Positions 16,167 through 50,558 of a DNA stretch of 64,000 nucleotides are shown here, one piece after another. Where the stretch lies: the NCBI GenBank assembly GCA_964016885.1, contig OZ024740.1, positions 238,452,001 to 238,516,000 on the forward strand, given 5' to 3'. How positions within the stretch are numbered: position 1 is the stretch's first letter; every line of letters begins with the position of its first letter. The notes below the pieces were generated by a model, which saw nothing but the letters and a program-made list of their open reading frames with translations, was not told the origin of the DNA and did no database searches. The DNA comes from Eledone cirrhosa (taxonomy: Eukaryota). The position numbers and the translations under genes were made by a program.

Positions 16167-16301
16167 ATATATTAATCAGATTATATGTTAGTTTAACACC
16201 AACACTCCATATGCAGGGTCTATTAACTCCAGAGTAAATTTATAAACAAGAGGTATAAGTCTACATTTCATAATTTACTTCTTTTATTATATATATTAAC
16301 T

Positions 16302-26703: not shown

Positions 26704-26735
<32 letters not shown>

Positions 26736-28309: not shown

Positions 28310-28782
28310 AGTACACAGCAAAAAGCAAGAGTTATATTAGTGTGGGGATAGGAAAAAGAGAAAGTTATCAAAACATTTGACTATCAGATCAAGTTAGAAA
28401 AGATATGTTATTACTGTTAATGTCTGATGTTTTAAAATTCTGTCTTTTGTATGGTGCCATACAAGTCTCTTGTGAGACAACAGTCTTTAGATTTACTCTT
28501 TATGGTTATAAAAAGCTTAGAACCCCTATTTTACAGGGAGGACCTCTACACTTTAAAAACTATAGTGAAACAGTAAACGGAATGAAATTCAAATGTGAAA
28601 TGAAAGTGATAATGGTCAGTTGAAATAAAAATAGATTAGATATTAGTTATGTGAGTTGATGAAATGAAATTACCAAGGAGAGAGGATATGTATTTAGTTA
28701 ATATCATTTTAGTAAAACATTAATAAACAAACAAAGAATGTAGTTTATATTAGGTACACACACACACACAGGAAAGCATATA

Positions 28783-30089
28783 AAGGGTGTGGACGATATT
28801 TGTTCGCAATTTTCAACTGCTGATTTTATGCAAATTTTTTTTACTTCAGTTGTCACTCTTGTCTTCATAAAAACAGTGACTATATTTCCATTATTTATTT
28901 TCAGAATAATTGATTATGAATAATTTTGAACCTCTAAATTTGTGGAAGAGACACGGAGTTCTTCTTGGAATCCTCACCGGAGGGACAAATAAGGAAATTT
29001 CAGACTTTCTCAGCGTCAGCAGGAGAATGGTGGAAAAGGTCAGAAAGGAATTGGAAGATTCAGGATTCGACTACGAAGCAATATCAGAGAGGAAAACACA
29101 TGATCGACGATCTGACGCCTTCAGAACGCCCGAGTTCGTCGCTGAAGTTCAGGATATCATCAACAATGAACCTAGCAAGTCGATGCATGCCATTGCAAGG
29201 GAGAAAGGCGTGGATGAAAAGTTTATTAGGCTGGTGGTACATGAAGACATTCGCTACGTTTCATACAAGATGAGGAAAGGACGATTTCTGTCAAAGGCGA
29301 TGCAAGAAAAGCGACTGAAGCACGCAAAGAAGCTGATCAACAAGTTGAAACACCCATTGGAGCCAGACATGCTGTAGTTTTTCTCCGACAAGAAAAACTT
29401 ATGCCAAGACCAGGAGATCAACTCCCAGAACAATAGGTGGCTCGCTGTCTCATCCAAAGACGTGCCCAGAGTCATGCAGACAAAGTTTCCAGTGACAACA
29501 TTGGTCTTAGGTGTCGTCAGCAGTCAAGGTGATGTCATGCCACCTCACTTCTTCCCTGAGGGCCTCAAGCTGAACACCGATGGCTACATCCGCGTTCTGA
29601 GAAGGGTAGTAAAGCCCTGGATCGACCAGGTAGCTGCGGGTAGGCCGTACGTGTAGCAGCAAGACTCAGCGCCCTGCCATACCAGCCAAAAGACCCAAGC
29701 CTGGCTGTCAGAGAACTTCGTCGACCACACTTCACCTGACATCTGGCCTCCCAGCTCGCCTGACTGCAACCCCCTCAACTTCTTTGTGTGGGGCGCAGTG
29801 GAACGAGACACCAACAGATCTAGCTGCAATACGAAAGATGATCTGAAGGCCAGGATCACAAGTGCCTTTAGGGGCCTAAGTCGGAGGACAGTGACAAAGG
29901 CCTGTAGCCGGTTCCAAGGCCGCCTTGAGGCCGTCATCAAAGCCAATGGCGGGTTTATCGAGTGAGATCGAAAGAACAAATCATGAAGACAAACTGACCC
30001 AAGTTTGATAAATATATCTTAAAAAATAAAACTACTGTGTTATTTTTTCCTAGACAGTAATCTTGCGAACAAATATCGTCTGCACCCTG
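28783..30089 (+). mobile_element. Full-length Tc1/mariner-superfamily transposon, DD37D (maT) type
   Basis: 27-bp TIRs (aagggtgtggacgatatttgttcgcaa / ttgcgaacaaatatcgtctgcaccctg), TA on both sides, 1307 bp. Confidence 0.93.
28916..29965 (+). pseudogene. DD37D transposase, single frame with two premature TAG stops
   Basis: Motifs FSD, QQDSAPCH and WPPSSPDCNPL(N), with 37 residues between the second D and the third catalytic position (now N). Stops at 29375 and 29654 replace expected Trp codons. Confidence 0.9.
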
Positions 30090-30173
30090 TACTTTGTTAA
30101 AAAAAGAACAATAACCAAAAAAAACATGCCAATAAATTCTTCAAGTTGTAGTTCAACAACAAAATTCTATAGA

Positions 30174-31676
30174 TTAATTTTTCCCTTTCAATTTTCTCTC
30201 TAAAACATCCTTCTTCAGTCGCATGATATCCATTTTAAGCTGATGTCGTTCTTGTTCCATTGCCATTCTTTGTTCATGCTCTTGCCTGTGCAGTTCAAAT
30301 ATCTGCTTTTCAAATGGACTCAGTACAATGTTGAATTGCTCATAGGATTGACACACACTTCCTGATTGTTTTTCTAAAGCATGATTATAGATGCTGACCC
30401 CCTTGTCTGAAATACTTGATGATATCATAGAAGCAGCCACCTGAACAGCTGACCTGATGTTTGGCAGGCATTGTTGAGTGTTCATGTGCATGCTATGACA
30501 CTTCCCATGTAAGTGATTGGTTGTGTAACAGTGTCTCTGAACTGCATTGGTTGCTGGCCCATCCCTCAATGACGCTGCCAAGGGGTGTGCTTTTTGACAT
30601 TTTAACACTTTTAATGAACTGGTATTAGAAGGAAGCTGATTGCTAGGTCTCACTATATCCACATCTGTTACATCTTTAGACTGACTGGTTGATGTAAAAC
30701 TGTCAGTTTTGAATTCACAGGGAGAACAATTAAGTGTAGAATGTGATGATAAAGAAGGGGATTTATGTAAATTGTTAGTAGAAGCAGTAGATACAGGAGA
30801 TAGAGAGGAAGAAGAGACAGTAGAAGGATGAGTTGTAGCAATGGTGTGAGAGGAAAGAGCAGTAGTATTAACAGTAGCACGGGAATGGTGAAGTGAAGAA
30901 TGGGGTTCAGAAACATTTGGAAGCAACGAATGATGAGGACGAACATTTCTAGAATTCTGACTGTTTTGTAATGGCATAAAATATTTGGATGAAGAATTAT
31001 AAACTGAAGGGTTTTCAGCGCTGGTGGTTGAATTTGAGAATTTATCACAAATGTACTTTATCCGTAGAGATCTCCTCAGCCTTGATGAAGACTGGCTACA
31101 CTTAGTTGGTACTGGTTCATTGCAGAAGTGTTTGGATAAAATATTATATCTACGAACTGATGCTTGATCACATAATCCACAACTTTTCCTCCTATTCCTT
31201 CTATAATTAACAGGAGTTGGAAGCTGATTCAGAATAGCAGAGTTTTTCAAACCAGATTTAGTTCTCTGACATTTATTGTTTTTTGAAAGCTGTTTATGAG
31301 TCTTCTTTGTAGAGTTGTTGCACTCATTGTGAATCTGACATTTGTTATTCACTGATCTTTTAACATTTCTTGAGTCAGCAAAACACTCAGTTATTTTCTT
31401 ACTGTGACTTGAAATAACTGAACTCTGCTCCTTTTGGGATATAATTTGATGTGTTGGGGAATTTTCTATTGTTTTCTTCTTGGCAAATTTACCCTTAATT
31501 CTATAAGGAATATTTGAGGCCTTAGCTTCCACATTTTGGATGAGTTGAGGGAGACTGGCATGAAGATTTTGAGAATTTCTTTTTAATTGTTTATGTTGAG
31601 ACTTCTTACAATTGGCTGTGTTTTTCTTAACCCTAAGCAATGACTCATACTTTATAGGTCTCAAAATTTTCTTAAA
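30174..31676 (-). CDS. Large terminal coding exon (500 aa): basic N-terminal part, Ser/Thr-rich middle, C-terminal coiled coil; probable exon 3 of the AT-hook gene
   Basis: Stop-free 1.5-kb ORF in AT-rich DNA. Strong polypyrimidine tract plus ttcag acceptor immediately before 31676, in phase 0. Ends ELHRQEHEQRMAMEQERHQLKMDIMRLKK...KN*. Linkage to exons 1-2 is inferred. Confidence 0.75.
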   Translation of the reverse strand, partial: FKKILRPIKYESLLRVKKNTANCKKSQHKQLKRNSQNLHASLPQLIQNVEAKASNIPYRIKGKFAKKKTIENSPTHQIISQKEQSSVISSHSKKITECFADSRNVKRSVNNKCQIHNECNNSTKKTHKQLSKNNKCQRTKSGLKNSAILNQLPTPVNYRRNRRKSCGLCDQASVRRYNILSKHFCNEPVPTKCSQSSSRLRRSLRIKYICDKFSNSTTSAENPSVYNSSSKYFMPLQNSQNSRNVRPHHSLLPNVSEPHSSLHHSRATVNTTALSSHTIATTHPSTVSSSSLSPVSTASTNNLHKSPSLSSHSTLNCSPCEFKTDSFTSTSQSKDVTDVDIVRPSNQLPSNTSSLKVLKCQKAHPLAASLRDGPATNAVQRHCYTTNHLHGKCHSMHMNTQQCLPNIRSAVQVAASMISSSISDKGVSIYNHALEKQSGSVCQSYEQFNIVLSPFEKQIFELHRQEHEQRMAMEQERHQLKMDIMRLKKDVLERKLKGKN

Positions 31677-31805
31677 CTGAAATGAAGAAAGAAATGAAGA
31701 CAAAAAGGAAAGACATTTACCACAGATAGAAAAATAAATGTAGTTTTAAGAGAACAGATGTAAACAGAAGTTAATCAACTTAAATTAAGATCTATACACA
31801 CAAAC

Positions 31806-31836
<31 letters not shown>

Positions 31837-31887
31837 TAGATATATATACATATATATACACATATATAGATATATATACACACATAG

Positions 31888-33504
31888 CTTGTTCTGACCC
31901 TCAATGGGTTTTCCCAGTAGGGTTTTACCAGCAGGTCTCTGGGGGTAGCCATGGGAACCAGAATGGATCCAAACCATGCCAACATTTTTTGTTGGCTACA
32001 TTGAGGCCCAGATTTCCCAGTACACTGGACCTACCCCTGAGTTATACGGTTGTTATATTGATGACTGTATTGGCGCCACCTCTCTCTCTCGTGAACAGCT
32101 CGACTGCTTTCTCTCCTTCAACCAATCTTTTCATCCCGCTCTCACCTTCACCACCTCCATCTCTGATTCTTCTGTCCCCTTTCTTGTCAATCTCTCTCTC
32201 TTTCTCAATCACACTCACCATACCCTTTCTACTTCCATCTTCTACAAACCCACTGACTCCCACTCTTACCTCAACTTCACCTCCTCCCAATTCCTCCATC
32301 TTCTTTGGCTCTGTAGCCAGGACCATATTTCAAGACCCAGTCCCTTCAAAAGGCCTCCTGCTTCATCCAGGATGGATACCCCCCCCCCCATCTCCGGTGA
32401 CATATTCTCTATTCCTTCCACACACTCTCTTCTGACCCTGTCCGTCACTTTTCACTTTTTTCCTAACTCACCTATTACCGCATTTAAGTGCACCCATAAT
32501 CTCCGTGACCTCCTGGTACATAGTTCCTTCCCTTTCTCTCCTAGGACTCCACCAGGCTATCATCTTTGTTCTCGTCCCCGCTGTAACACCTGTCCTTTCA
32601 TTTCTAACCACACCACCCACAGGCACCAATGGTTCATTCCGTATCAGCCACTCCTTCACCTACACATCCACCCACATAGTCTATGCCATCCAGTGTTCAC
32701 TTTGCAGGTCCTTATACATCGGACAAACAGGATGCAGTTTGCTGAACATTTAAGAGACGTATGTCTCGGCATGGATACGCCCGTCGCTCATCATTTCCGT
32801 TCCACAGGCTACCCTTTACTACATGTCTCAGTCCTTGGTGTCTTTTTACATCATGGATCACATGCCTCATGCTCCAAGACAGAGAAGAGTCTGATTTTCT
32901 GCCTTGGGTCGTTTCCCCAATGGTCTCAACTCCTCTCTCCAATTTCTTTAATCTTACAAACATACGTTTGTGCTTACTTCTCTACCCCTTGCCACCGTCA
33001 CGTTTACCCCGTCTATTGTTACCCTTGTGTGCATACTTTCACCCCCTACATTGCTATGGCTCTGTTATGTTCAGTAATATATACTCTTACAGTTTATACA
33101 GACAAACAAAAAACACACACACCTCGACATTTACCTTCACAGCTCCGTACACATACACATACTCCATTACATAAACATACTTTTGCTCACAGCTTCGTCC
33201 TTACAAACACACACACGTATAGCTCTATATACATAACGTTTTTTTTTCCCTTTCAGATAAGACACGCTCCATCAACAGTTTTCCAAAAGATGGCAACATG
33301 AATGGACCTGTTATTTTTCTCTAAAAAATTTTTCCCAATTCCGCCCTCCCCGTCTCTTCAATTTTTCTATTTCTTCTTTAATATCTCATTCTTTCTTCTG
33401 ATGAAGGGCTAGCGTCTGAAACATTAAGACTCTCTTCTTGCTATTTTAAGCGTTAAACTAATATATTCCTTTCACATACTGTGCTGTTTGTTATTCCTGT
33501 TTAC

Positions 33505-33508
<4 letters not shown>
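31888..33508 (+). mobile_element. Penelope-like retroelement (RT plus GIY-YIG), 5'-truncated, flanked by TA-rich microsatellites
   Basis: GVAMGTRM, YIDDC, FYKPTDSHSYL, CSRPRCNTC and VYAIQCSLC..LYIGQTG, frameshifted. The 3' end carries a hammerhead motif. Confidence 0.9.
33392..33430 (+). ncRNA. Hammerhead ribozyme motif (type I, decayed) in the 3' repeat of the Penelope-like element
   Basis: CTGATGA-aGGGC-tagc-GTCT-GAAAC-ATTA. Penelope-like elements are known to carry minimal hammerheads. Confidence 0.7.
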
Positions 33509-33556
<48 letters not shown>

Positions 33557-34314
33557 GCTGTTACGGATCCACTGTTTTGCTATATTACAGAAACCCTTGG
33601 TTCATTTAGTCGTTTTTTTCAAATTCTACTATTATTATATATATATATATGAGTGGTACATTTATAGTTAACTTGGTGTTAACATATCTAATGTATCAAA
33701 ATATAACTTTAGGGAAAGATAACATTACCTCAATGATTAATAATATTTTAATCGTGGCAGTGAGTTTAAAGGGATATAACTGGATAATGTTTCAGTCTTA
33801 TTAGACCTTTTCATTGAAGCATAGACATAACCATACTTTTCCAAGCAGATATGAGAAAATCACTAAGTAGATGTACTATACTACGTAAACAGGCATAAAA
33901 AATTGGCATATTTAAAATAAAATAAATCACTGAGGGAATCTACACAGAGGCACCATTTGCGTAAAAGGCAATAGTTAAGTTAGTGCTAGTATATTTAATG
34001 AAGTGAACACAAAAAGGCTAATTAAAACAAATGTTATATTTATAGTTAGCGCAATATTAGTTAAATGCAATTAAGAAATTCCAGTATTAACAAATTTATC
34101 AATAACCACAACTGCACTAATATCTTACTAAATATATCAATCAGCTATTTAGTTATCATTTGAAACAAGAAACAGTTAATGCCTTTCAAAGTGGTCAAAT
34201 ATATTTGAATATAAAACCTGGGCCATAACAAAGTCTGTTTAGTGTTCAGTTAACAATAGCCATTACAAAGTCTGTATTGGTTGACTACAATTTATAAAAG
34301 AATTGCTAACTTAA

Positions 34315-34519
34315 CCCTTTAGCATTTAGACTGGCCTTATCCGGCCAGAATTCTCTCACCCTTTTCTGTTCAAACCAACCTTAATCGGGTGCTCAATGTT
34401 AAGTATTGTCCTGAAAATAAATAACATCAAAATCTCATAGCTTCGATATTATGTGAGATAAAAAAAAGCCTTTACTGTGAAAATAATAGTAAATATAGAG
34501 TAATGTAAATTCTAAAGGG
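34315..34519. mobile_element. piggyBac-type MITE
   Basis: Same family. Confidence 0.82.
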
Positions 34520-34649
34520 TTAGTTTGCTGCTTTCATTTAAAGTTTCTAGATTCTGATGAGAAAAGTTTTTTTTTTATATTAGGAATTCTAAAATATATG
34601 TCAGTAATTCTGAGTAATTAGTGATTTAATTATTTAAATATGCTTTAAT

Positions 34650-34992
34650 GGAGGCACATGGCTTAGTGGTTAGAGCATTGGCCTTGCAATCGAAAGGTTG
34701 TGAGTTCAATTCTCAGACCGGGTGATGTGTTGTTTCCTTGAGCAAGACACTTTATTTCACATTGCTCCAGTTTACTCAGCTGTAGAAATGAGATGATAGG
34801 GACTGGGGTCCATATCATTCCACTGCAAAATGGTCGTGGAGGTGCCACGGCAAAAAAGCACCCAGCACTCACTGTAAATGAGGTTGGTGTTAGGAAGGGC
34901 ATCCAGCTGTAGAAATCAAGCCAGAATCAGTTCCCGTCCCACCCCTGCAAGCAGGGAAAAAGCGGACGTAAAATGAAATGATGATGATGATG
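34650..34992 (+). mobile_element. tRNA-derived SINE family A (RTE-type tail)
   Basis: A-box TGGCTTAGTGG, B-box GTTCAATTC, ccttgagcaagacact core, (GAT)n tail. Five near-identical copies in the window. Confidence 0.92.
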
Positions 34993-35167
34993 CTTGCTAA
35001 CACATCTATTAGTGATTCAATTATTTTAATATGCCTGCTAACTGATTTTGCTTGTCAATAACTGCCATGATGTGTACATAAATTGTGTCTCTACGTCATT
35101 TTTGTGTGTGTATGTTGGAAATATGAAGTGACTATCTGTTGAAACACAACAGACTCACACCTAACTT

Positions 35168-35487
35168 CATCATCATCAACGTTTAACGTCCGTGTTCCAC
35201 GCTTGCATGGGTTTGGATGGGGGTAGTCCCACTTGAGGCAAGAGTGATTGTCTTGCTCGCATAGGACTGTCTGGCAGGTTTTCTACAGTTGGATGCCCTT
35301 CCTAACACCAACCACATTTACAGTGTGGACTGGGAGGTTTTTACCGTGTTGCCTACACGGCCACATTACAGCGTGGACTGTGTGTTTTTTTGTCGTGACA
35401 CCTACACGATCTCATTTGTTTCGGCCTGGATGGCGCGGCACCAACATAACTTTACATAGAACGGGGTGGTGTGGATGGGGTGGGGGT
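35168..35487 (-). mobile_element. RTE 3' end, tail type B (truncated)
   Basis: Aligns with 25790-26105. Confidence 0.78.
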
Positions 35488-36552
35488 ACTTTTGCTTATT
35501 CTTTTACTGGTTTCAGTCAATGAACTGTAGTCATCTTAGGACATCACTATCAAGAGTTATTTTTTATTTGTTTATATCAACCCTAATACTTTGTCAGGTA
35601 CATATTTTACTGAAATCATGAGAAGCAAAAGGTGAACCATCCTTTTAATTTGCTGTAAAATTTCACTCACAAGATATCACTTAAGCCAATTCTATGATAG
35701 AATACACTTGCCTAAGGGACTATGCACAGAAATTGAACCCAGAACCACATGGTTGTAGATTGTGAAGCAATCTTCTTAATTACATATCCCTGTTTGCACC
35801 TAACTGTATAAAATATGTATAGAAACTTAAGAGAACAATATTTCCTAAGTATCAACCATATTAAACTTGTTTATACCTGACAAATGCTCCCAGTTTTAAC
35901 ACAATCAATAGAACTACATCTACCATTATCACCAGCACCAGCAGTAACAGGTCTACATAGACCAAGTACTGAAGCAGGGCTACTGACACCCCAGACAAGC
36001 CAAGGGGTCTGTATCCTGCTTATGTATGGTTATTATTGAATGCAGAGAAGTTGTCATGTCTTTTGACACAAACTAAAGAGTCTTCCTAACCCCTTGTTGT
36101 CCATGCTGGTGTGTTGAATGAGTCTCCAATATATTTTTCAACTGTGAAGCCCTATCTTCCTAGATCTACTCAAGTCATCATTGATGTACTGTTACCATTT
36201 GTACCAGATAACAAAAACTTACAGTAACTACACATCATTCATTAGCAATATAATACATACAATAAAGTTGATGTAAATAAGGGGCATCCAGTTACAAAAC
36301 TTTCACTCTAGTTATCACACCTTTATACAGGTGCCACAATGAAAGATGCAGTTGTGTAGATGTCTAATTAGAAGTAGCCAAATGTAGAATGTAGAATGAT
36401 ATTGTCAACGATGACAACGCCGATGATGAGGAGGAAGAAAAGGAAGAGGGTATGAGCAGAAAAGGATTATGATGGTGATGATGATTGCAGGAATCATAAC
36501 ATACATCATTAAACACTCACACTGCTTCTGTTTAATATTTGTCCCTAGACTA

Positions 36553-36748
36553 CAAGGGTTGGCTGAAAAGATAAAAGGCTGACAATGAAGTAGTGATGCT
36601 AGAGCTGTGAAATCTTGTAAGCATTAATTTTAACTTTTCTTATTAATAACTGCGTTGTTTCTTTCCAGAGACTAATTTGAAAAATAAACCTCATTTGGTC
36701 ATTCCATGAGTATCTTGGTCAGCCTATGGATTTTTCAGCTGACCCTCG
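36553..36748. mobile_element. Mariner-type MITE
   Basis: TA-caagggttggctgaaaa ... ttttcagctgaccctcg-TA. Confidence 0.78.
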
Positions 36749-37664
36749 TATTTTAAGTAGTGCCAAACATCTAAAATGCTTCTGGTAACACTACCATAGC
36801 CCAAGACATCTTTCAACACAGCTTCAATCAAGCATTTCATCAGATGCAACTTTAGTTCATCAATGTATCAAATACCAACCATAAAAAGATTGTAAAACAC
36901 AAATGTTGATCAAACCTTTATTTAAATAGACATTAAATTAATCAATTTTAGATATATTTCTACCAAGACAAAGTATTCATACTTTTATGAAAGCTTATTA
37001 AAAAAAAAGCAGCATCCATATTAGGATCGCCTTCATCTCTACATAACACTTCCCTGAATTAAGTCAACAAAGGAAAATCTAGTCAATCAATCTACTATAA
37101 ATAATAGCCAAATCTCCCTCAAATCACACCCTACTGTCTTACGGAAGGAAGAATTCATTGGTTATAATTGTTTCTACTTTTGGCACAAGGCCAGCAATTA
37201 CCCAGTGCATTACTGGTACTTTATTCTATCGACCCCGGAAGGATGAAAGGCAAAGTTAACCTCATTATAACCTCATTGGTTATAATGTAGTTTTAGATCT
37301 GCTTTTCCATTCTTGCATATGTCTGATAAAAGATAAGGGTTTCATGGTAGAAATATCTTCAACCTAGGCCTAAACAACTACTAAACAACTACTTCTCTCA
37401 AAATTATAGCAATTTTACAATTATCATTATCTTCTTCAATAATATTATAAGACACAAGTCAAACATTGTGACATGATACAGTGAAATATAAACAAAATGG
37501 AACCCAAAATAGGTCACAACAATGTCAGTGTGATATTGATATAATCATTTCATATTAATCTGGTTCCATTAAGTGTAAAATATGCACACAAAAAAAACAA
37601 TAATCTAATCTGTTTCTCAAAGAAATCACATCAAATTCAAGCAAGGGCCAATTAAACATGCAGA

Positions 37665-37998
37665 TATGTCACACAATAGTTCATAAATAGCACACAACAG
37701 TTCATAAATAGCACACAACAGTTCATAAATAGCACACAACAGGTCATATATGACACACAACAGTTCATAAATAGCACACAACAGGTTGTATATGACACAC
37801 AGCAGTTCATAAATGGCGTACAACAGTTCATAAATGGCACAATATTTCATATATGGCACACATTTCATAAATGGTACAATATTTCATAGACAACACACAG
37901 ATATGACACACAACAGTTCACAAATGGCACAATATTTTAAATATGGCACAATATTTTAAATATGGCACACAACATTTTAGATATGTCATGCAACATTT
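37665..37998. repeat. Approximately 21-bp minisatellite (cacaacagttcataaatagca)
   Basis: About 15 diverging tandem units. Confidence 0.88.
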
Positions 37999-38016
37999 TT
38001 AAAGAATTACACTAAC

Positions 38017-38085
38017 CTTAGAGGGTCTCTTGTTTTTACTCCCTTTTGGTCGACCCCGTGGTCTCTTCGGTTTGGGGTCTTCAGA
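38017..38085 (-). CDS. HMGA-like: Exon 2 of an HMGA-like AT-hook gene (SEDPKPKRPRGRPKGSKNKRPSK)
   Basis: atttccag acceptor and AAG|GTTAGT donor, 69 nt, phase 0/0. Contains PKRPRGRPKGSKNK, the hallmark second AT-hook of HMGA1/HMGA2. Confidence 0.92.
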
Positions 38086-38959
38086 CTGGAAATATTAGAA
38101 AGAACGAATATTAAAGAATAGACTTTGTATGTGGGAGATGCACAGAGATAATTAGTAGTACAAGTACCAATGAAATAACCTTTTTCTAATCCTGAGAAGG
38201 TACTATAGAAGTAGTTGATAGCTTCTGTTATCTAGGTAATTTCATTAGCAGTGGAGAGGGTTACTCTGAAAGCAAAATAGCTAGAATAAGAACAGGATGG
38301 ATAAAATTCAAGGAGCTATTATTACCTCTGTTGACAACAAATGAACTTTCTACAAACAAAAGGTAGGCTGTATTATGACTATGTGAACAGTATGATGTTG
38401 AGACATAGACAGTGAAGGCAGAAGATATGCAAAGGCTGGACTTGCAAGTCAAGCATGCCTCAATAGATGTGTAATGTTAGTGTGCATGAACAGCGAAGCA
38501 TGGATGAGCTGAGATAAAAACTGGGCTTAAGAGCAGATGTAATAGTGCAAGAGAGACGATTGCACTGGTATGGACATGTGATGCATATGAATGATGATCA
38601 CTGGGTGAAGAAGTGCCAAGTGAGATGAAGCCCTGGGCTGAAGCAATGAGAGCTGATTTCAAGAGGAATAAGACTGTGCTGAAAAAAACCCATCCAACCC
38701 ATGAAACCATGAAAAAACAAATGTAATACTGATGATGACAAAGATAACAATAAGAACTTAATCTCAAACTTCCCATGAGAGCTGAAATGATGAAGGTCAA
38801 AATAAGAATGAACCTCCACCAAGTGATCCAGTTGTTCAATCAATGTGTTCCATTGACTACCTGGTTATGAAATTAACACATAAGTAGTTGAACATGTTTG
38901 TTCAATAAAATTAACACATAAGTGGTTTGGAACTGTTTGTTTTAAAGTGTTTATCTTAA

Positions 38960-39156
38960 CCCTTTAGCATTTACATATTTCTATATTTACTATTGTATTT
39001 TCATGATAAAGGCTTTACCTCACATAATTATCTCTTTTTGATATTATTTATTTTGAGAATACCTTAGCATCAGTATGAGCAGCCAGTTACAGCCAGTTTG
39101 AACAGTAAGAGGTGAGAGAATTCTGGCCAGATATGGCCAGTTTAAATACTAAAGGG
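38960..39156. mobile_element. piggyBac-type MITE (opposite orientation)
   Basis: Same family, TTAA on both sides. Confidence 0.85.
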
Positions 39157-39863
39157 TTAAGTTACACTCCAAACACCAGCTTCCAAATCCAGGATCTTCT
39201 CACTCCTGCTGGAAGTACCCCTCTCTGGTTGACCTCCACTGCTTCTTATTTCTGGCTATATTGGGTCATATTGTACCGAATTTCAGGTCAGATCATATGG
39301 CCATCTTCACTGGTGGTGTTGAGTGCCCATGTCTTACTTCCATAATGATAAATTTAGTTATGTGACTAAATATTATCCAAATGTTTGATTATTTTAAAAT
39401 TTATTTGAAGTTCATAGATATTAGAAATATGGTAATGAGAAGGTTAAAATATAGTAACAAAAAGGGTTAATTATGGGTCAGAGTATCAATGAACTTATGG
39501 TCTCTGTTGTTGTATAGTTGGTGAGACCTCTTTATAACAATATGTTGGGAACATTGGAGTTATGACAAGGAGTTCTTTAAAATTCACTACTGATTTCTGA
39601 GTTTTTTTAAGCAGATAGTTAAACAATTACTATACAGGCTTGGCTATATGATTAAGGAGTTCACTTTAAACCATACCCGTCAGGGTGTCTTCTACTAATA
39701 GGTTCAGGTTTACAATGAAATTTGACAAACAGAAACTGTGCAGATATCTGGATAGGTTATGTGTCAATAGGCTATGTATCATACCCCTTTGAAAGAATTT
39801 TTCAAAAAGACATGTATACAAAATCCTATTGTGCTAAAAATAACAATTACACTAGAAGCAAAT

Positions 39864-40041
39864 TATTTATTAAAATAGACACCAAATACAATTAATACAT
39901 TAAATGCTGATTTACGAACGTTTCATCCCCTTCCTGAAACTTTTCAAAACTAGTTATTTAATAAATCCAGGAAGAGGATGAAATGTTCGTAAATCAGCAT
40001 TTAAATGTATTAATTATATTTGGTGTCTATTTTAATGAATA
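39864..40041. repeat. Inverted repeat with 73-bp arms, next to (TA)n, carrying the hammerhead 3' half GAAACGTTC
   Basis: Arms 39864-39936 and 39968-40041. Confidence 0.85.
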
Positions 40042-40135
40042 TATATATATATATATATATATATCATCATCATCATCATCATCGTTTAAACATCCATTTT
40101 CTACGCTAGCATGGGTCTGATATATATATATATAT

Positions 40136-40320
40136 AAAAAGTAGAAAGTAAACAGAAACAACAAAGCTAACAACACAGTACAATGAAGAAATATATTAGT
40201 TTAACACCTGAAATAATAGGAAAAGTGTTTTAATGTTTTGGACACTACTCCTTCATCAGATGATAAATTGAGAAATAAAAGATGAAATAGCACACGGGCA
40301 TATTTAGTCAGCCATTCGAG
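40136..40320 (-). mobile_element. Solo 3' end of the Penelope-like family, with a decayed hammerhead, ending at (TA)n
   Basis: Minus strand ctgatgaaggagtagtgtccaaaacatta...gttaaactaatatatt...tactgtg...gtttac aligns with 33398-33508. Confidence 0.7.
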
Positions 40321-40463
40321 ATATACATATATTATTATTATTATTATAATCCCGAGGTTAACTTTGCCTTTCATCCTTACGGGGTCGATAAAATAAAGTA
40401 CCAGTAATACACTGGGTAATTGCTGACCTTGTGCCAAAAGTAGAAACAATTATTATTATTATT

Positions 40464-40738
40464 GTTCCTTGAGTCTGAGTCATTGATGTTATTTAACTGG
40501 AAAGTTTGTTGAAATGAATATCAAGCCACTACCTGCAGCCTCAGATATTCAGGATGTATCGGAGGGTTCTTGCTGTTCCCAGCAAGCATGCCTTTTTGAA
40601 GTGTTCCAAAAAGCGGGGCTGGACTAATCTTTAACCATCTTTGGAAACTCTTTGAGTACCTAGTGCGCCTATGATAATCGGGACGACCTTGATTTCATGG
40701 CAGTTCCAAATCCTTTTTAACTCCCACTTTAAGTCCTG

Positions 40739-40740
<2 letters not shown>
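40464..40740 (-). mobile_element. 3' end of an R4/Dong-type non-LTR element (restriction-like endonuclease C-terminus) inside (TAA)n
   Basis: Manual translation YQDLKWELKRIWNCHEIKVVPIIIGALGT...ACLLGTARTLRYILNI*. (TTA)n on both flanks. Confidence 0.82.
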
Positions 40741-40774
<34 letters not shown>

Positions 40775-41214
40775 CTATTGAGGAACCTTCTTTGTTTTAA
40801 TTTTATTGTTACCTTTGTTTTTTAACATTATTAAAATTTTTTTACACACACCAACACATACACACACTCTATGTGTTTCGTTCTATACTGTCATAATGTT
40901 TTTCTTGATGTAAACGCTTTGTGGTTAATAAAGAAAACATTATTATTATTATCATCATTATCATTATAAATTGTATGTTAAAAAAATATATAACACCACC
41001 TTAGAATGACAAGTATTTACAATCAGTAAATGCACTCTGTGCCTTGCCTTGAAACCTATGGTAGAGTTATAAGTGTTTTGAATGTCAGATTCATAACAAC
41101 TTAGCTCTCTTTAATATATTACAAGCTCTTTTTCTTTTTCCTTCTTGTAGGCTCCTTCGCTACACACACATATCATATACAGTATCATAATGGTCAACAA
41201 ATAGAGATTGAGGA

Positions 41215-43521
41215 AAATGTACCAAACATGAAAGAGTAGATACTGGAGTGAATATGACTAAAAGTGGGGTCTCGGGATATGCAACCTATTGCCAGATTTT
41301 ATGGCGTTAGAGGTAGACTACAATATATTTTTTGAACAGGCCCCTCTACCTAAGGCTTGTTACTCTGCATAAAGAATGATAGGGTATGAATGTTTTAATT
41401 GAATCAGACCATACAGCAGTTTTTAGTATTCTAATAATAGACACTCTATTATGAACATCTTCCAGTACAAGATATCCATAAGTATACATAGTATGCAGAG
41501 GTCAGTAATTGATTTTATTATTGTTTCTGATCTCTTCAAACCTGTGTTGGATATTTGAGTTAAGAGAGGGGCTGAGCTGTCAACTGATCAATATTTAGTT
41601 ACCTGCAGTTTGAGACTATTTTAAGTGAAGAAAACCCATAAAACGCTTGAACTACAGGATAAAGTAGAAAGTGCTGGTTGATGAGAAGGTCAGGACCAGG
41701 AATGTGGATAGCTATTGCATCCTAATTCAGAACTCCTTGAACAAAATGAGAACATTGAAAAGAAGACTGCTCAGCTTCGTAGTTTGTGCTTCAGCTGTTA
41801 AATGCTGCGGATGAAACAGCTTGGCGTGGCACCGGGTGACAGAAAGACCCCTTGGTTCAAGCAAGAGGTCAAATAAGCCATCCAAGCAAAGAAGGGAGCT
41901 TACAAAGCTTGGCTTGGAAATAAGTCTTCCTTCTTGTACTCAGCTGACTTCTTAATAAAAATGTTCCCCTCCACACTTATTAAGAACTCGTTTGAAGTGA
42001 GATACATCCACGCAGGTTGGAGAGATTCTTTGCTGATTTCCTTAGTCTGGTCACAACATTGGATATACACGAGATGCATCTAGGGACAAAGACTAATATC
42101 CTGAAAGTTGAGGTCACCAAGACAATTAAAGCACTCATATATGGCAAGGCCTCTGGGAAGGAGGAAATTCGGCCTACGATGTTAAAAGCCTTAAATAGAG
42201 AAGGTATGCTCTGGCTGACTCGTGTGTGCCAAGTGACCTGGAAAGGCACCTAAACAATGGCATTCGCAAGTGAAAATCAAAAATCAATTTTCAAAAAGAG
42301 AGACAAGTGAGATTGCTCCAGTTATATGGGGTATCTCCTTGTTAAGTGTCCCTGGTAAATTCTGTCAAGTGCCTGGCAAAAAGAAGTAGTACAGCCAACC
42401 AAATATTCACTCTGTGGCAGGTCTTTGAGAAATCATGAGAGTATTATCACAAGGTGTATGCTTGTTTCATAGACATTGAAAAGGCATGTGACCGTGTTCC
42501 ACGGGGCATGTTGTGAAGGTTCTGCAGGAATATGGGACTGATAGACAGTTTCTTGTTGTCCTGATGTCTCTATACAAATGCCCTAGGATTTATGTTCAGC
42601 TAAATGGTGTTAAGTCAAAACCATTCAATGTGAGTGTTGGACTCCACCAAGAGCGTGTACTGTCACCTCTCCTATTCATAATTTTTATTGACAGGATTGA
42701 TATGAGCAGCTGAGTTGGAGGTGGTACCAAGACCAGTGGGTGTAGGATCAGTCGGCTGGAATTTGCAGACGACATAGTATTACTCAAGTTGTCGGAAGGT
42801 GATCTCCAATATGTACTGGATAGATTTGTAGCTGAGTGTTGCACGGCAGGAATGAAAATCAGTTCTGTAAAGACTGCGACACTGATCTTCTAGAGAAATC
42901 CTATGGAAAGCACTTTGCATGTGAGTGGAGTTATACTGAAGCAAACTGAGAAGTTCAAATATCTCCGGGCCATTTTTATGAGTGATGGCAGGCAGGAGGT
43001 TGAATTAGATGCAAGAATTGCTGGATTTGATGCGGTGATGTACTAGCTTCAGTACTCAATCATCAGAAGGAGGGTATGTGTAAAAGCCAAACTCACTATC
43101 TTCAATTTGGTGTTCGGGTCTATCCTTATCTTTGGTCATTAATCTTGGGTATTGACCAAAAGAATATGATTGTGAACACAAGTGGCTGAAAAGGGGTTCC
43201 TCTGAAGGGCCTTTGAAGTAATGTTACTCAATAGGGTGCATAGCTCAGAGATCAAGGAGTTACTACTTCAAATCAATAGATCACAGCTCTGATACTACGA
43301 CCATGTGTTTAGAATGTCTAAGGAAAGAACCACTGGACAGATTTTACAGGCAAAGCCAACCAGCAGGGGGCCCAGAGGTAGACCACAAGCAAGATGGTTG
43401 GATAACATCAGAAGCTCAGTTCGTCTCCCCTGCAGATCTAGCCAGATCAACTGGAGACAGTTACATCCCCAACGACCCTTCCAGGAATAAGTAGAAGAGA
43501 AGAAAAAAAGAAGATGATGAT
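41215..43521 (+). mobile_element. Degenerate RTE-clade LINE (second, older family)
   Basis: GAELSTD (APE), FIDIEKA, GLHQ..VLSPLLF, LEFADD and RGPRGRP, with many stops and frameshifts. 3' end aggaataagtagaagag...gatgat. Confidence 0.85.
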
Positions 43522-44624
43522 ATTTTCATTGTATATATATATAGGGGGAAAAAAACAGTTAATAAAACTGTTGAAACCAATTATGATGTTCAAAGACCAA
43601 CTAGTGAATTTGATCAATAAAGGAAATGTGATAAAAAATGCCTGGTTATAAAATATATTTTAATAATTCCTTCATGCCCTATGATCTCGTCCACTTATCT
43701 GAAATTGAGCTTCAGGAACTAGACAAAAAAATAAGCTTCAGAACATTGATTGACCTTTACCAAAAAATGTAGCATTAAAAAAAAAAAAATTTAAATAAAA
43801 AACAATAACAATGGAAGCATTGAGATTGCTTCAACAATCACTGAATTGTGTGACTGAAATACAAATGTAATAACCTGCTTAACTTAACAAGCTATGATTC
43901 CTCAATACTTAACAGTAAGTTCATTCTGTATGCTGATCTGGTGCCACAACAAAAACACAGAGTCCATCCTGTAAATTAGTCATGCTGGTGACTGAACAAA
44001 AAGTGCCCAGTTCACCCTGCTAGGTGATCGTTTAGGTGCTACGATAAAAAGTACCGTCCAATCTGTAATGTGGTTGGCATTAGGAAGGGCATCCAGCTGT
44101 AAAAACCAAGTCAAAATACAGATCTGTATGAGTATGATATGGTCTCTGGACCTGACTTGTCTCATAACATGATAACCCATCTAACCAATGAAAGCATGAA
44201 AAATGGAGGTTAAATGATGACAGTGATAAAACTGGTGCTTGGAACATAACTCAACAAAAGGTTTTATATAAAATTATGATGGAAAGTTTTAAAATAAAAA
44301 TAACTAATTTAAAACGAGAGATTTTGTAAAATAGTAAAATAGAATCATGGCCAGTTTCAGACAGTTTGGTATCAAAAGAGTTAAACTTAAATGACTTAAC
44401 TTATTGATAGTTTTTATGAAATTCTTTACATATATGCACTGATTAACAAACATACATTTACAGTCACAGCAACACATGGGCAGATATACACAACCTTGCA
44501 ATCACTTGCATATATACACAGGAAAAAACTTATGTGTATATATGAATTCATAGACCTCGACAAAAACACACCTAACACACAAATAAATATATACATATAT
44601 GTGCGTGTGTGTGAGGAGGTTTTG

Positions 44625-44985
44625 TACATGGATTATTCTGGAAGTAAAAGTGTTACTCAATAAATTGCGTAACTCAGAGATTAGAGAGTCACTCCAGGTA
44701 GAGCCGCTACTTCGCCGAATTGAGAGATCACAGCTCTGGTACTATGGGCATGCGGTTAGAATGTCTCAGGAAAGAATGGCTGGACAGATCTTACAGGCAC
44801 AACCAGCCGGCTAAAGACCCAGAGGTAGACCCAGAGCAAGATAGTTGGATAACACCCATGAGCTTGGGTATCCAGCTGGATCAATTGGAGACTGTTGCTT
44901 CTGACAAGACTCGCTGGAAAGAGTGTTTGAGGACTCTGCCTCCACAATATTCTCAGGAGTAAGTGGGTGAAGAAGAGAAGAGAAG
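44625..44985 (+). mobile_element. 3' fragment of the 41-43 kb RTE family
   Basis: IERSQLWYYGHAVRMSQERMAGQILQA matches 43270-43400. Confidence 0.8.
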
Positions 44986-45099
44986 GAATTATATTTTGGT
45001 GTTTGAACCTGTTAGCCATATAATTGTTTCTACTTTTGGCACAAGGCCAGCAATTACCCAGTGCATTACTGGTACTTTATTTTAAGTCATATAGTGAGT

Positions 45100-45488
45100 G
45101 GAGGCACATGGCTTAGTGGTTAGAGCATTGGCCTTGCAATCGAAAGGTTGTGAGTTCAATTCTCAGACCGGGTGATGTATTGTTTCCTTGAGCAAGACAC
45201 TTTATTTCACATTGCTCCAGTTTACTCAGCTGTAGAAATGAGATGATAGGGACTGGGGTCCCTATCATTCCACTGCAAAGTGGTCGTGGAGGTGCCACGG
45301 CAAAAAAGCACCCAGCCCACACTGTAAAGTGGACATGGAGGCGCCACGAAAAAAAAAAAGCACCCAGCACTCACTGTAAATGAGGTTGGTGTTAGGAAGG
45401 GTATCCAGCTGTAGAAATCAAGCCAGAATCAGTTCCCGTCCCACCCTTGCAAGCAAGGAAAAGCGGACGTAAAATGATGATGATGATG
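45100..45488 (+). mobile_element. SINE family A, with an internal duplication of about 45 bp
   Basis: Same sequence as 34650, with gccacg...cacccag...cactgtaaa repeated twice. Confidence 0.92.
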
Positions 45489-45824
45489 AATGGCTGTCAT
45501 TTGACCTTTGTATGTAATTAGTGAAAAACAACTCTGCCCTAACCACACAAACTACAGTACTAGAATTATCTGCTAGACACCTGAATTTCATTTGAAGGAC
45601 TTGTTAGAGCTTTGGACAAAATACTTTGCTGCATTTGTTTTAGTTATTTATGTACTAAATTCAAATCTCACCAAGGTCAACTTTACCTTTTACATTTCTG
45701 GGGTTGATTAAATAAAATACCAGTCAACTATTGGAGGTTAATATAATTGACTGTTTTTTCTTCTAAATATCTGACCCTGTGCCTATGTAAGAAATTATTA
45801 ACATTGTTATACATAATGACTTAA

Positions 45825-45998
45825 CCCTCCAGAATTCTCTACCTTTTTCTGTTGAAACTGGCTGTAACTGGTCACTCAAACTGATGTTAAGGTATTGTTT
45901 TCAAAATAAATACTTTCAAAATCTCATAGATTCGATATTATGAGATAAAGCATTTACCATGAAAATATAATAGTATATATAGAGTGAATGCTAAAGGG
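45825..45998. mobile_element. piggyBac-type MITE (internally deleted)
   Basis: Same family, TTAA on both sides. Confidence 0.8.
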
Positions 45999-46049
45999 TT
46001 AAATCTTATTGTTATTTTAGACTTCTTCATAATTAATATATATGCAGCT

Positions 46050-46473
46050 CTCTAAGACAATGTCACTGGACCGAGAACTTTGGTGCCATGCAGTAATACA
46101 GAAGACCCGCCTTGCCTATGTACAAAGCAAAACCTACAGTCAGTAGGCACCTCTTAACCAAATATACACTCCAACCCACTACCCCTACTCCATCCCCCCA
46201 CTCCCACCAACACCACCCTTTCTCTATAAAGTTATGTTGGTACCACTACATCCAGTCCAAGCTAAAGAGGTTGTGTAGGTGTCACGACAAAAAAACACAG
46301 TCCACACAGTAAATATGGTTGGTGTTAGGAAGGGCATCCAGTCATAGAAAACCTGCCAGTTACAGTCCTATATGAGTGAGACACGGTCACCTGATCAATC
46401 TTGCCTCAAGTGGTACAATTCCCGTCTAACCCATGCTAGCGTGGAAGATGGATGTTAAACAATGATGATGATG
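46050..46473 (+). mobile_element. RTE 3' end, tail type B
   Basis: Reverse-orientation homologue of 25763-26290. Confidence 0.75.
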
Positions 46474-46524
46474 AGACAGAGAGACAGAGAGACAGAGAGA
46501 CAGACAGACAGATAGATAGATAGA

Positions 46525-46981
46525 TAGTGGTGTCATCCAGTGCTGGGCTCCAAAAACTGTGTTCCTGCTGTGAGCCAGGCACTCATACTCTGGTTCCACA
46601 TCGTCTAGTATTGGGCTCCTAAACTATGGTTACACCGTGAGATGGGTTCAGTGCAGCCAGCTAACCTGTCCCTCTTCATGGCGGTGCCATCAGATACTGG
46701 AGTACAAAACTATGGCTACGCTGTCAGATGGGTTTAGGCTCCTTGTATCGGTGCCATCCAGTACTGGGGTCCAACTGGCCTCTTTACATCGGGGTGCCAT
46801 CAAACGCCAGGCTCTCCCAAAAAGTGGTTTCGTACTGAGAAGAGTTCGTCGCATGGAGAGTACCCAGCCCCAAAACTGGGGTGCCTCTGTGGGAGGGGTT
46901 TGGCGACACCACATCCCTTCCCATAGTAGTGTCATCCAGTGCCGGGCTCCAAAAACTGTGTTCCTGCTGTGAGCCAGGCAC
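46525..46981. repeat. 399-bp partial tandem repeat with degenerate internal subrepeats
   Basis: A 57-bp direct repeat at 46525 and 46924; follows a (GACA/GATA)n tract. Confidence 0.8.
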
Positions 46982-47614
46982 CGACGTAATCTTCTCTCAA
47001 GTCAACAGCATCTGATCCATCTTATTCCTAATTTCTCACTTAGTTCGTTTATGTTTTGCAGTTCATGTATTACACATCCAACAGAGCATGCATGCTATAT
47101 ATATATATGTGTGTGTGTGTTTGGACGTGTAATTTCTGATGGAGTCACAGGGGCACTGTCATGACATACAAGTGTGTCTTAGGCACCTTAAGCTTAGTGG
47201 AACCCATTCCTTCTCCAGGTCAGAATACAGGAGAAAGATGAAGAGATATAAAGAAAGAAGTGAACCTAGTACTGGACTGCTACTTTTTAATCAACCTAAA
47301 AGGATGAAAGACAAAGTTGACCTCAACGGGATTTGAATTCAAGAAAGCACAGTCAGAATGAATACTACAAAGCATTCTATTCAATGTTCTAATGACTGCC
47401 CATTTGCCAGACTTTTAAATTTGTTCAATAAATAATTTTTTCTAGTTTTGTTTCATATATGAGGCTGAGTTTGTCCTTACCAATATTGAAAATCTAAATA
47501 TATTGAACATGATCAGTAATTTTAACCCTTTCATTACTATATTTCTGATAGAATATATTATATTGATGAAAAATTTTGGAGGGATTCACAAAAATTATTA
47601 TTTCATATTATTTC

Positions 47615-47960
47615 GGAGGCACATGGCTTAGTGGTTAGAGCATTGGCCTTGCAATCGAAAGGTTGTGAGTTCAATTCTCAGACCGGGTGATGTGTTGTTT
47701 CCTTGAGCAAGACACTTTATTTCACATTGCTCCAGTTTACTCAGCTGTAGAAATGAGATGATAGGGACTGGGGTCCATATCATTCCACTGCAAAGTGGTC
47801 GTGGAGGTGCCACGGCAAAAAAGCACCCAGCACTCACTGTAAATGAGGTTGGTGTTAGGAAGGGCATCCAGCTGTAGAAATCAAGCCAGCATCAGTTCCC
47901 GTCCCACCCTTGCAAGCAGGGAAAACGCGGACGTAAAATGAAATGAAATGAAATGAAGAT
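47615..47960 (+). mobile_element. SINE family A
   Basis: Near-identical to the 34650 copy. Confidence 0.92.
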
Positions 47961-48386
47961 GGTATGTGTAACTTAACAAAACTTACTTACATCTAGTAAT
48001 TATGTTGGAAGAATTTGATTTAAATAGAAACCCATTAAAATAGGTGGTTTTTTGGTGGGTTGTATCAAAAATTTAAATATGAGAATTGTTAATAAAAATC
48101 TGAAATTCCTTTAAAATTTAATACTATTCCACCTTGAAAAATAAATTTTGTATAACTAAGATAACCAGATAATATTAGCTTCTGGTCATTCGTCTTATAT
48201 TTAACTGATGAGAAAGACTGGCGTAATAGGCACTATTGCTGGTCAAACAATTGACTGACCATCATTGCTTGCAGTATAAGCATGGGCGGGGTAGAAGCTG
48301 TGATAGTCAATAATTGTCTACTTTGGCAAGCAATGGTGGTGGTCAACTATATTATATTGAACACTGATTGTGTTGGTCAGCCAGAC

Positions 48387-48490
48387 TCCATTACTGTAAA
48401 ATGGTAGTAGAAGCTACGATGGTCAGTCAGTGTTTCCATTACTGTAAAATGGTAGTAGAAGCTACGATGGTCAGTCAGTGTTTCCATTAC
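48387..48490. repeat. 48-bp tandem duplication within a degenerate ggtcagtca repeat region
   Basis: tccattactgtaaaatggtagtagaagctacgatggtcagtcagtgtt twice. Confidence 0.85.
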
Positions 48491-50468
48491 AGCAGCATGA
48501 CAGTCTCCCTGGAACAACATAGCAGTGGAAGAAATATTGGTCAGTCACTCTCCAGGCAATGAAAGCTGTGCTGGTCAGTTAGACTTACACACATACACTG
48601 CTGCAACTAGCCTGACAGACCCTAATAGTCGCCACTGTGTTCACTAAGGCTGATCAGACAGCTTTACTGGACATCGTTTTCTAATGGACAGAAGCAGTAG
48701 TAATTAATTGTAAGACTGATCAAACCTATTTCTCCGTGCTGTCATAGGGAATGTTTCAATTATATTTAAACACACACACACGTGTATTTATCACACTCGT
48801 AGTATATGAATTCATACATATGTATGAATTGCATACACTTATAATGTTTATATTTATATATAGTCGTTGTTTAGTCACAAGTCAACCGTCGAGTCTTTTT
48901 CCTATGTACATAGAACCCAGAATCACATTATACAACGTTTTCTTTATTAAGAAGGTAGAGTGAGTTTTTGAAGATTTGACTATTATTTCTAGCAAATCGA
49001 GCTTCCTCGTTGTCTCAATATACATATTGCATGTTGTGATCGCATCTTAAAGGGACGCAAGTCAAAATAGAGCAAGGGGAAGGAGTGAAGCAGAGTTATA
49101 AATAACTTGTGTAACAGCATGTGAATTGTATTTACTCATTCATAAGTTCCAAGTAGTGACTGAGAAAACTAAAGTTATTTGTTATTTCTAGTTGAAATGG
49201 TATGATAATGGTTATAAAAGAGTAGCATAGGCGGTTATGATATAGTGGAGAGATTGTGTATGTAACATTAGATCAGCTCTGATCGAAGAGACCTAGTGAT
49301 GAAGTCTGAGAGAGACTAATAAGGCCGGTATCTTTGAAACGGTACAGTACAGTAGTTGAGGCATGTAGTAGTATGGTGTACGGTGATATGGTCAGTCCTC
49401 AAATACAGTGGTATGATCAGTTGCTTTAGGGTAGTGGTAAGGTTAACATCTTGTTTGATTCACCTGTAAAAGTTAAGTTCCCCAACAAACAAAATTACTC
49501 TACACGACAGAACAACTTGTCATCTTTAACGAGTTATATTAATTGTCTTTGCCAACACTGACCATCATTAATTTCCTCGGACATAAGTTGGTTTCTTAAA
49601 ATGTAGAAAACTTGATGAGGCCGGTATATATATATATATATATAAAGAAGGGGTGAAAAGAAAGAAAGTATGAATAATGCAAAGGGGTGTCAATGTGGGG
49701 TAAGAAAAGCGAGGGAGGGATAAAAAGAAAGACATGGCAATAGTAATGCGGAGGAAATTGGAAAAAGAGTAAAAGTAAATATTGACATAGAAGAGACTGA
49801 GATGTAGAGTAGGGGAATGAAAAGAAGAAACTGAAAGGTGGTAAGGAAATGGAAAGTGAAAGACAGTGAAATAAAGCAGGAGAAAAAAGAGAGAAGATAC
49901 CAAATAAGAGGAAGAGAAAAGAGAAGGAAAGAAAGACTAATAAAATATGAGAGGGGGAATATAGGTGCAGTTAGAAGTAGGTAAGAGATATATAAGAGAA
50001 GAGAGAGAGGGTGGTGAATAAACATAGGAAAGTTTTTTTATAAAATAAGATTGCAAAGATTTTGTTATCCTCAGGCTTGGAATTAAGATCAGAAGACTAG
50101 CACGGAGATACATTTGGCTAATAAGTCATTAAATATATTGCACAGTTAAAATGTTTCCCACTGTGTTAAACATAAATAGTTTTGCTGACTTGAAATGTCA
50201 ATAGTTTACTTGTTTCTTATCTCTCTCGCTCATTCAGTGACACAAACAAATTATTTACATTCACACACACACACACTTGTGGATAATTTTGGCGGGAGTA
50301 TAGAAAGAGAAAAAAGTCGATGATAACTTTAAAATATTTTTTTTTTAAGAATGAAGATAGTCAGAAAAGATAAAAGCAACAGTATTATGATAAGATGAGA
50401 GAATTTACATAATAACTACAAAGTTAAAATATATTGAAAGCAATGAAAACTATTAAAATGTGTCTGAC

Positions 50469-50558
50469 CTGATCTGACTTGAGTTTTCGAGGTCGTCCAC
50501 GCTTCCTTTTCACTGGCTGGTGGCCACTACTGGCCTGTTCTGCTGCCACATCTGCCAT
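50469..50558 (-). CDS. HMGA-like: Exon 1 of an HMGA-like AT-hook gene (MADVAAEQASSGHQPVKRKRGRPRKLKSDQ)
   Basis: Manual translation. ATG in gaaATGG context, 30 codons, AT-hook KRGRPRK, ending CAG|GTCAGA donor in phase 0, like HMGA2 exon 1. Confidence 0.88.

Follow-up and report, generated by a model that had tools for sequence, protein, structure and literature searches.

HMGA proteins normally consist of AT-hooks and an acidic tail in about 100 residues, and forms in which the hooks are joined to a foreign tail are known mainly from tumours. Why, then, should two small AT-hook exons in Eledone cirrhosa appear to be followed by a 500-codon exon? We addressed this question in a 64,000-nucleotide (nt) stretch of DNA from this species (assembly GCA_964016885.1, contig OZ024740.1, positions 238,452,001 to 238,516,000), hereafter the window, whose own numbering is used unless stated otherwise. 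An initial annotation had proposed here a hidden HMGA-like gene, either a lineage-specific chimera reminiscent of tumour fusions or a gene with an alternative last exon. We found that the gene is HMGA by orthology, exon layout and acidic tail and that the large exon is an alternative last exon within its intron 2. That this is a two-hook HMGA gene whose exon 2 is joined to a 500-codon alternative last exon we regard as close to certain.

Two AT-Hook Exons and a 500-Codon Exon Share One Reading Frame

All three coding exons lie on the minus strand. Exon 1 (50469..50558; 90 nt) opens with a start codon, encodes 30 amino acids (aa) including the hook KRKRGRPRK, and ends at a GTCAGA donor, while exon 2 (38017..38085; 69 nt, 23 aa) carries the hook PKRPRGRPK and the donor AG/GTTAGT. 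The large exon (30174..31676) holds 500 codons and a TAA stop behind the acceptor ...TTCATTTCAG. Intron 1 is repeat-rich and spans 12,383 nt (38086..50468), and the intron leading to the large exon spans 6,340 nt (31677..38016). The exons are all in phase 0 with GT-AG ends and together encode a long form of 553 aa, just as the initial annotation had laid out coordinates, phase, intron lengths, and approximate product size. Exon 1 is identical at 28 of 30 positions to the proteins named HMGI-C in Octopus vulgaris and Octopus bimaculoides, at 27 of 30 to its Octopus sinensis counterpart and at 23 of 30 to that of Argonauta hians; exon 2 matches three Octopus proteins at 20 of 23 positions and A. 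hians at 19 of 23.

The 500-codon frame is not a product of chance, since in 2000 base shuffles the longest open stretch reached at most 153 aa (median 56) and the remaining five frames of the exon contain 23-50 stops each. Its acceptor at 31676 has the highest pyrimidine count among the YAG candidates listed between exon 2 and the stop (18 of 20, vs 15-17 at the other acceptors of the gene), and a search of the 3.0-Gb genome with this exon gave one match. Upstream of exon 1, a likely 5' untranslated exon lies at ~50877-50940 on the minus strand and ends at a GTAAGA donor (50876); in one of its frames 5/7 residues agree with the N-terminal extension present in the O. vulgaris model, and no start codon was seen there.

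A Spliced Contig Joins Exon 2 to the Large Exon

Four sequencing runs from one study (X1-X4) contain the large exon, and the library type is unrecorded for all of them. X1-X3 come from one sample and comprise ~1,400 million letters each; X4 comes from another sample and comprises 88 million. In X4, a 613-nt contig with a depth of 6 aligns to 31094-31678 except for 28 letters, whose sole match in the window is at 38019-38046. With the CT common to both ends, this is exactly the junction 38017->31676, one of the two joints that the initial annotation had predicted. Five X4 contigs cover 30328-31678 almost without a gap, and the lack of X4 coverage at ~30148-30324 and 31682-31780 proves nothing. 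The contigs of X1-X3 are continuous across the 31676 acceptor to 31789, and across exon 1, as expected of DNA. We infer that X4 is RNA because its splice is precise and its contigs add up to little (88 vs ~1,400 million letters). An origin of the junction in a retrocopy is unlikely because the assembly holds one copy of the large exon.

The X4 contig opens with exactly 30 letters of exon 2, which, given how contigs are presumably built, suggests that splicing branches at the donor of exon 2. The long and short forms described below would part there. No joint between exon 1 and exon 2 was seen among those listed for the reads of this species (a 19.9-kilobase (kb) span, swamped by repeats), and we take this junction, as a probable one, from the four gene models of O. 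vulgaris, O. bimaculoides, O. sinensis, and A. hians. Relative to the window, another X4 contig lacks 3 letters at 30808, within the Ser-rich stretch of the large exon, and the reading frame is preserved.

The Large Exon Lies inside an Intron of the Only HMGA Gene Found

The initial annotation had rightly noted that the window contains neither a third-hook exon nor an acidic exon. Further left on the contig, on the same strand as the hook exons, lie two exons with proper splice sites and stop. One is a 33-nt cassette exon (G000:C1:238425012-238425044, minus strand; 27 kb from the window edge), which encodes 11 aa, with 10/10 aligned residues identical to O. bimaculoides HMGI-C. The other is the canonical acidic last exon (G000:C1:238423392-238423490, minus strand; 28.5 kb from the edge), which encodes 32 aa followed by TAA, 28 of the 32 being identical to Octopus tails; the tail has 11 D/E in its last 22 residues and a net charge of -7. 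Measured from exon 2, the intron is 64,972 nt long to the cassette exon or 66,526 nt to the acidic exon, and positions 1..38016 (minus strand) would be the in-window part of this intron 2 of the short form, which continues past the left edge to both exons. Since this 65-66.5-kb intron, which separates the hooks from the acidic tail, contains the large exon, and since the large exon closes with a stop, it is an alternative last exon. Of the two possibilities raised initially, the alternative last exon is thus the one supported, given that the large exon is spliced to those with the hooks and that the canonical 3' exons (cassette and acidic) follow downstream on the same strand.

A search among shorter proteins with the N-terminal 55 residues gave 13 matches, the best two being the HMGI-C proteins of O. 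vulgaris (CAI9722171.1, 103 aa) and O. bimaculoides (XP_014783342.1, 96 aa). These are products of the same gene, with 48/53 identical residues over exons 1-2, and consist of two hooks and a 32-aa acidic tail, between which an 11-aa segment may stand; the models connect exon 2 with the acidic exon either directly or through the cassette. While they end in the acidic tail, the long form here ends in a 500-aa basic exon. When the 96-aa O. bimaculoides protein was searched against the genome, three of the four matches fell at this locus (E 1.4e-9 at the canonical 3' exons) and the fourth had an E of 5.6 and two stops; this is therefore the only HMGA gene found in the genome. It likely gives rise to both a 553-aa basic form and a classic form of 85 or 96 aa, with net charges of +61 vs +6 or +9 and start-to-stop spans of ~20 kb vs ~79 kb, respectively.

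Hooks with an RGRP core sit on separate small exons (exons 1 and 2), as is typical of HMGA genes, and in the short form the gene has an acidic C-terminal tail; Pfam AT_hook matches in the homologues are weak and below the cut-off. A third hook, which the initial annotation had expected to lie beyond the left edge, did not turn up in a motif scan of the window and of 200 kb downstream (17 matches in the latter, 4 on the HMGA strand, none exon-like by eye) or by tblastn with Octopus HMGA. There are two hooks in the window, and the annotated short forms of O. vulgaris and O. bimaculoides likewise have two. The long form, with 553 aa and a net charge of +61, has neither the acidic tail nor the ~100-aa size of the family. 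It is a product of an HMGA gene and not a canonical HMGA protein.

Octopod Relatives Carry the Same Long Form under a Kinase Name

Word-based searches with the tail, as we call the 500 residues of the large exon, recovered two relatives from sets of 7809 and 34 candidates. One is an unnamed Logan cluster with three members; the other, A. hians GAB1598210.1 (566 aa), begins with two hooks and joins them to the tail. The latter is listed twice (GAB1598210.1/GAB1599031.1), on two contigs. A profile search of 1.84 billion cluster representatives at E <= 0.001 gave two matches only, both octopod, namely the A. hians protein and a 147-aa fragment from O. bimaculoides. The cluster of this fragment includes O. 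sinensis XP_029635809.1 (580 aa), which has both hooks and the same junction, reading KPSK then FQEILRP where E. cirrhosa has RPSK then FKKILRP. The O. sinensis and A. hians proteins are orthologous long forms with no essential difference from the one described here, under names without a link to HMGA. The gene was thus less hidden than first proposed, its long form being already present in two sets of gene models under a wrong name. Both are called "probable serine/threonine-protein kinase dyrk2," a name that we reject: neither the window exon nor its homologues matched a kinase family at E <= 5 or 10, and there was no PDB match.

Conservation along the tail is uneven. Identity to O. sinensis is 65/148 for tail residues 1-150, 46/67 for 151-220, 71/138 for 221-360, 18/40 for 361-400, and 86/100 for 401-500; the corresponding counts for A. 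hians are 39/126, 33/67, 60/133, 18/39, and 73/100. Over residues 445-500, 44-48 of 56 positions are identical in four homologues. This pattern points to selection on the protein, as far as can be judged from alignments. Homologues of the large exon were found in O. sinensis, O. bimaculoides, A. hians, and the unnamed Logan set, and all named matches are octopods. The tail thus appears octopod-restricted so far; because these searches covered predicted proteins and the large exon is fast-evolving, this is no proof of absence from squid or other molluscs.

The Tail Is Basic and Ends in a Conserved Predicted Helix

The tail contains 78 K+R against 30 D+E (net charge +48, isoelectric point 10.05), with 17 Cys and 26 His. 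Most of the charge lies in its first 250 residues, and the middle is rich in Ser and Thr. The motif RRKSCGLCDQ, a CxxC motif at tail residues 162-171 (31164..31193, minus strand), is invariant in all four sequences covering it and is followed by an RRSxR motif at residues 201-205. AlphaFold2, run on a three-sequence alignment, confidently modelled a sole element, a C-terminal helix at residues 454-498 (30183..30317, minus strand) with a per-residue confidence (pLDDT) of 80-97; 421 of the 500 residues scored below 50, and the tail is predicted to be mostly disordered.

Searches for a known family gave nothing for the tail in Pfam above cut-off, in a PDB profile search at E <= 10, or in Foldseek on the low-confidence tail model, and the last 60 aa had one chance-level match in the PDB (E 3.1). 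The Atlas yielded no usable match for a long-form homologue. Its scores for the C-terminus were all below the bar of 0.9, the lead being one of 0.86 to a cluster with 34% NAM-associated members. The C-terminus of the tail, we presumed, resembled Myb/SANT-like tails derived from Harbinger elements. This origin was not supported at any of the six PF13873 genes tested (6/6), since no helix match lies within 30 kb downstream of each; the best score was 6.0 bits vs 7.2 for controls, and the last exons may lie further away. Nor did Pfam detect a SANT domain in the large exon. The six Myb/SANT-like genes themselves, on contigs C14, C7, C23, C5, C27, and C2, carry long low-complexity open frames.

Similarity to the helix was seen in the last exon of a gene on another contig (G000:C25, match 14054355-14054474), with 43% identity over 40 aa and E values of 0.002 and 8e-4 in reciprocal genome searches. 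In a comparison over 6923 frames, the C25 frame scored 22.4 bits on a local profile of the helix, whereas the other real frames reached 7.9 at best and reversed ones 7.2. The last exon of the C25 gene is of low complexity and ends in the similar helix. A frame running downwards from C25:14066451 on the same strand encodes a 100-aa Cys-rich segment, which may be separate from the helix-bearing gene. The C25 frames had no meaningful match in Pfam or the PDB.

Repeats Surround the Large Exon

A Tc1/mariner-type element (28781..30091, plus strand) lies 82 nt past the stop of the large exon. It has 29-nt terminal inverted repeats and a broken transposase, with weak matches to HTH_Tnp_Tc3_2 and DDE_3 that fall below the curated cut-offs. 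The first two AATAAA signals after the stop (29227 and 28899) lie inside this element, which may supply the poly(A) site of the large exon or may have displaced it.

Just upstream of the large-exon acceptor, at 31949-33301, lies a likely remnant of the long interspersed nuclear element (LINE) type, its class being read from the translation, with no Pfam match in the part scanned; another likely LINE-type remnant at 17595-19890 matches reverse transcriptase (E 9e-18). Between the large and cassette exons, ~33 kb of the HMGA intron (positions 1-13398 and ~20 kb further left) consist of a 49-nt satellite whose GC skew is extreme; this satellite accounts for the long repetitive open frames of the 1-13398 region. 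At the other end of the window, a TGG-rich simple repeat array (60957-64000) gives long His/Pro/Thr open frames.

What the Long Form Might Do

Here exon 2 splices to the 500-codon exon and, we propose, also to the acidic exon ~66 kb away, so that the balance of long and short isoforms would depend on which last exon is chosen. The long form retains both AT-hooks and has a basic tail (net +48) in place of the acidic one (net -7). According to excerpts of the mammalian literature, HMGA2 is inhibited by its acidic tail, which contacts the hooks and reduces affinity for DNA, and protein lacking this tail binds more tightly (PMC11773362). HMGA2 also condenses polynucleosomes, and its hook 1 can be substituted by foreign disordered regions (PMC10570362). 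By extension, loss of the acidic tail would remove autoinhibition, and the basic tail would add many more DNA contacts. Freed of its acidic brake and carrying a long basic region, the long form would likely bind AT-rich chromatin more tightly and compact it, while the conserved C-terminal helix likely serves self-association or partner contact. We further infer that a poly(A) site follows the large exon, that the long protein is stable, and that it plays this biochemical role. An alternative-last-exon HMGA making a tighter-binding, compacting form is, in our judgement, probably the best explanation as a whole; that chromatin compaction is the main role falls slightly short of an even chance.

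Several points weigh against this explanation. All function is extrapolated from mammalian HMGA2. The junction 38017->31676 was seen in a single contig, from one run of unrecorded library type, and the short form in this species is presumed from intact exons and two Octopus models. The A. hians model is an automatic prediction in which the large exon begins ~13 codons later; the genome that we take to be its source was annotated by an automatic pipeline using RNA-seq and homology, according to excerpts of its description (PMC12682272). The structural model of the tail was built from three sequences, and low pLDDT is no proof of disorder; the helix lacks a clean heptad pattern, with at best 6 of 13 a/d positions hydrophobic. 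Finally, the nearest AATAAA lies 946 nt past the stop, within the transposon, and no poly(A) site was seen.

Could the long form act through its C-terminus rather than its charge? As an adaptor, it would use the hooks to target AT-rich DNA and the C-terminal 100 residues to recruit a regulator, a cofactor-like isoform as in HMGA2 fusions, and the lipoma fusions described in excerpts of PMC7279267 do join hooks to LIM or activation domains. Conservation is concentrated in those last 100 residues (73-86 of 100) and in the short CxxC/RRSxR block, and the likeness of the C25 gene, judged by sequence, suggests a reused interaction module. On the other hand, the lack of any Pfam match over the cut-off and of any PDB sequence or fold match leaves no partner or family to name, and the net charge of the tail is kept despite sequence drift (+48 here, +54 in two homologues), which fits a charge-based role. 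We consider the adaptor unlikely, if worth keeping in mind. The same composition recalls sperm nuclear basic proteins, which are basic, contain Cys and His, diverge fast, and have a narrow range. The long form could then be a basic Cys/His chromatin-condensing factor of spermiogenesis, absent from most tissues; the basic N-terminal half, 17 Cys and 26 His of the tail, its rapid divergence, and its narrow range would suit such a germline role. Yet protamine-type proteins are far shorter than 553 aa, and the homologue and Pfam searches with the tail revealed no similarity to sperm nuclear basic proteins, so that we find this role improbable.

The tail protein might also be of minor importance, with the large exon acting to lower or re-route short HMGA output through another 3' untranslated region (UTR) and a shorter primary transcript. 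The start-to-stop spans given above (~20 kb vs ~79 kb) are compatible with such a regulatory exit, and human HMGA2-S and HMGA2-L differ in terminal exon and 3' UTR, with HMGA2-S escaping let-7 (PMC7353061, in excerpt). A mere exit would not need an open, conserved frame, however, and the 500 codons are open here and in three full-length homologues and contain strongly conserved blocks, which makes this option quite improbable. Least probable by far is that the large open frame forms a gene of its own, nested and with a separate start, the junction then being rare read-through. One O. bimaculoides record does consist solely of the last 147 residues, and three Logan proteins begin at an internal Met. 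But the X4 contig enters the large exon from exon 2 at the exact acceptor, hooks and tail are joined in the models of two other species, the O. sinensis homology begins at the acceptor, and in this genome the large exon has no in-frame Met within its first 225 residues.

Returning to the tighter-binding, compacting HMGA isoform, a bolder version can be sketched, which we think rather doubtful. The large exon would be a captured exon whose helix is common with the C25 gene, and the long form an octopod-specific, self-associating chromatin condenser switched by last-exon choice in, for example, germline or neurons. If this were true, octopods would have made a conserved, regulated isoform of a layout known from human tumours, that is, hooks without the acidic brake plus a large new domain.

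Relation to Known HMGA Forms and Significance

The terminal exon of human HMGA2-S adds just a few residues, while the large exon here adds 500 conserved ones; human HMGA2 has three hooks against two here, and no sequence relation was found. The arrangement is the same in kind, the hook exons being spliced to a terminal exon within the hook-tail intron. HMGA2-S and HMGA2-L likewise have their hook exons in common and differ in C-terminus and 3' UTR through the terminal exon used (PMC7353061), and the intron between hooks and acidic tail is also large in human HMGA2, at ~110 kb (PMC11773362) vs 65-66.5 kb here, both sources being cited from excerpts. As described in parts of PMC11354804 and PMC7279267, HMGA2 tumour fusions likewise combine AT-hooks with a large foreign C-terminus and lose the acidic tail. 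They are, however, somatic rearrangements of two genes, whereas the octopod form uses a conserved germline exon from the gene's own intron and keeps the normal 3' end. A tumour-type fusion, and with it the chimera first proposed, can be set aside: the native 3' exons are intact in cis, and the large exon is single-copy and conserved.

No description of the octopod long form was found in the literature searched, which lay outside subscription journals and supplements, and the accession may stand in supplementary tables of expression data; passages of one preprint and one paper that came up dealt with HMG-box proteins, and molluscs and octopus go unmentioned in the available excerpt of a review of HMGA evolution (PMC7013770). 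The long form is apparently undescribed, though modelled in databases under a wrong name. Its novelty is tempered by the existence of these models and of known alternative last exons in HMGA2. One database error is corrected, as two "DYRK2 kinase" models are HMGA isoforms.

Taken together, these findings describe a natural HMGA form five to six times the usual length that is conserved from Octopus to Argonauta, a split with a lower fossil bound of ~29 million years according to an excerpt of PMC12682272. It offers a natural test of the role of the acidic tail and of whether a tail swap alone alters chromatin packing, and with it octopod genomes gain a candidate for a chromatin protein specific to their lineage.

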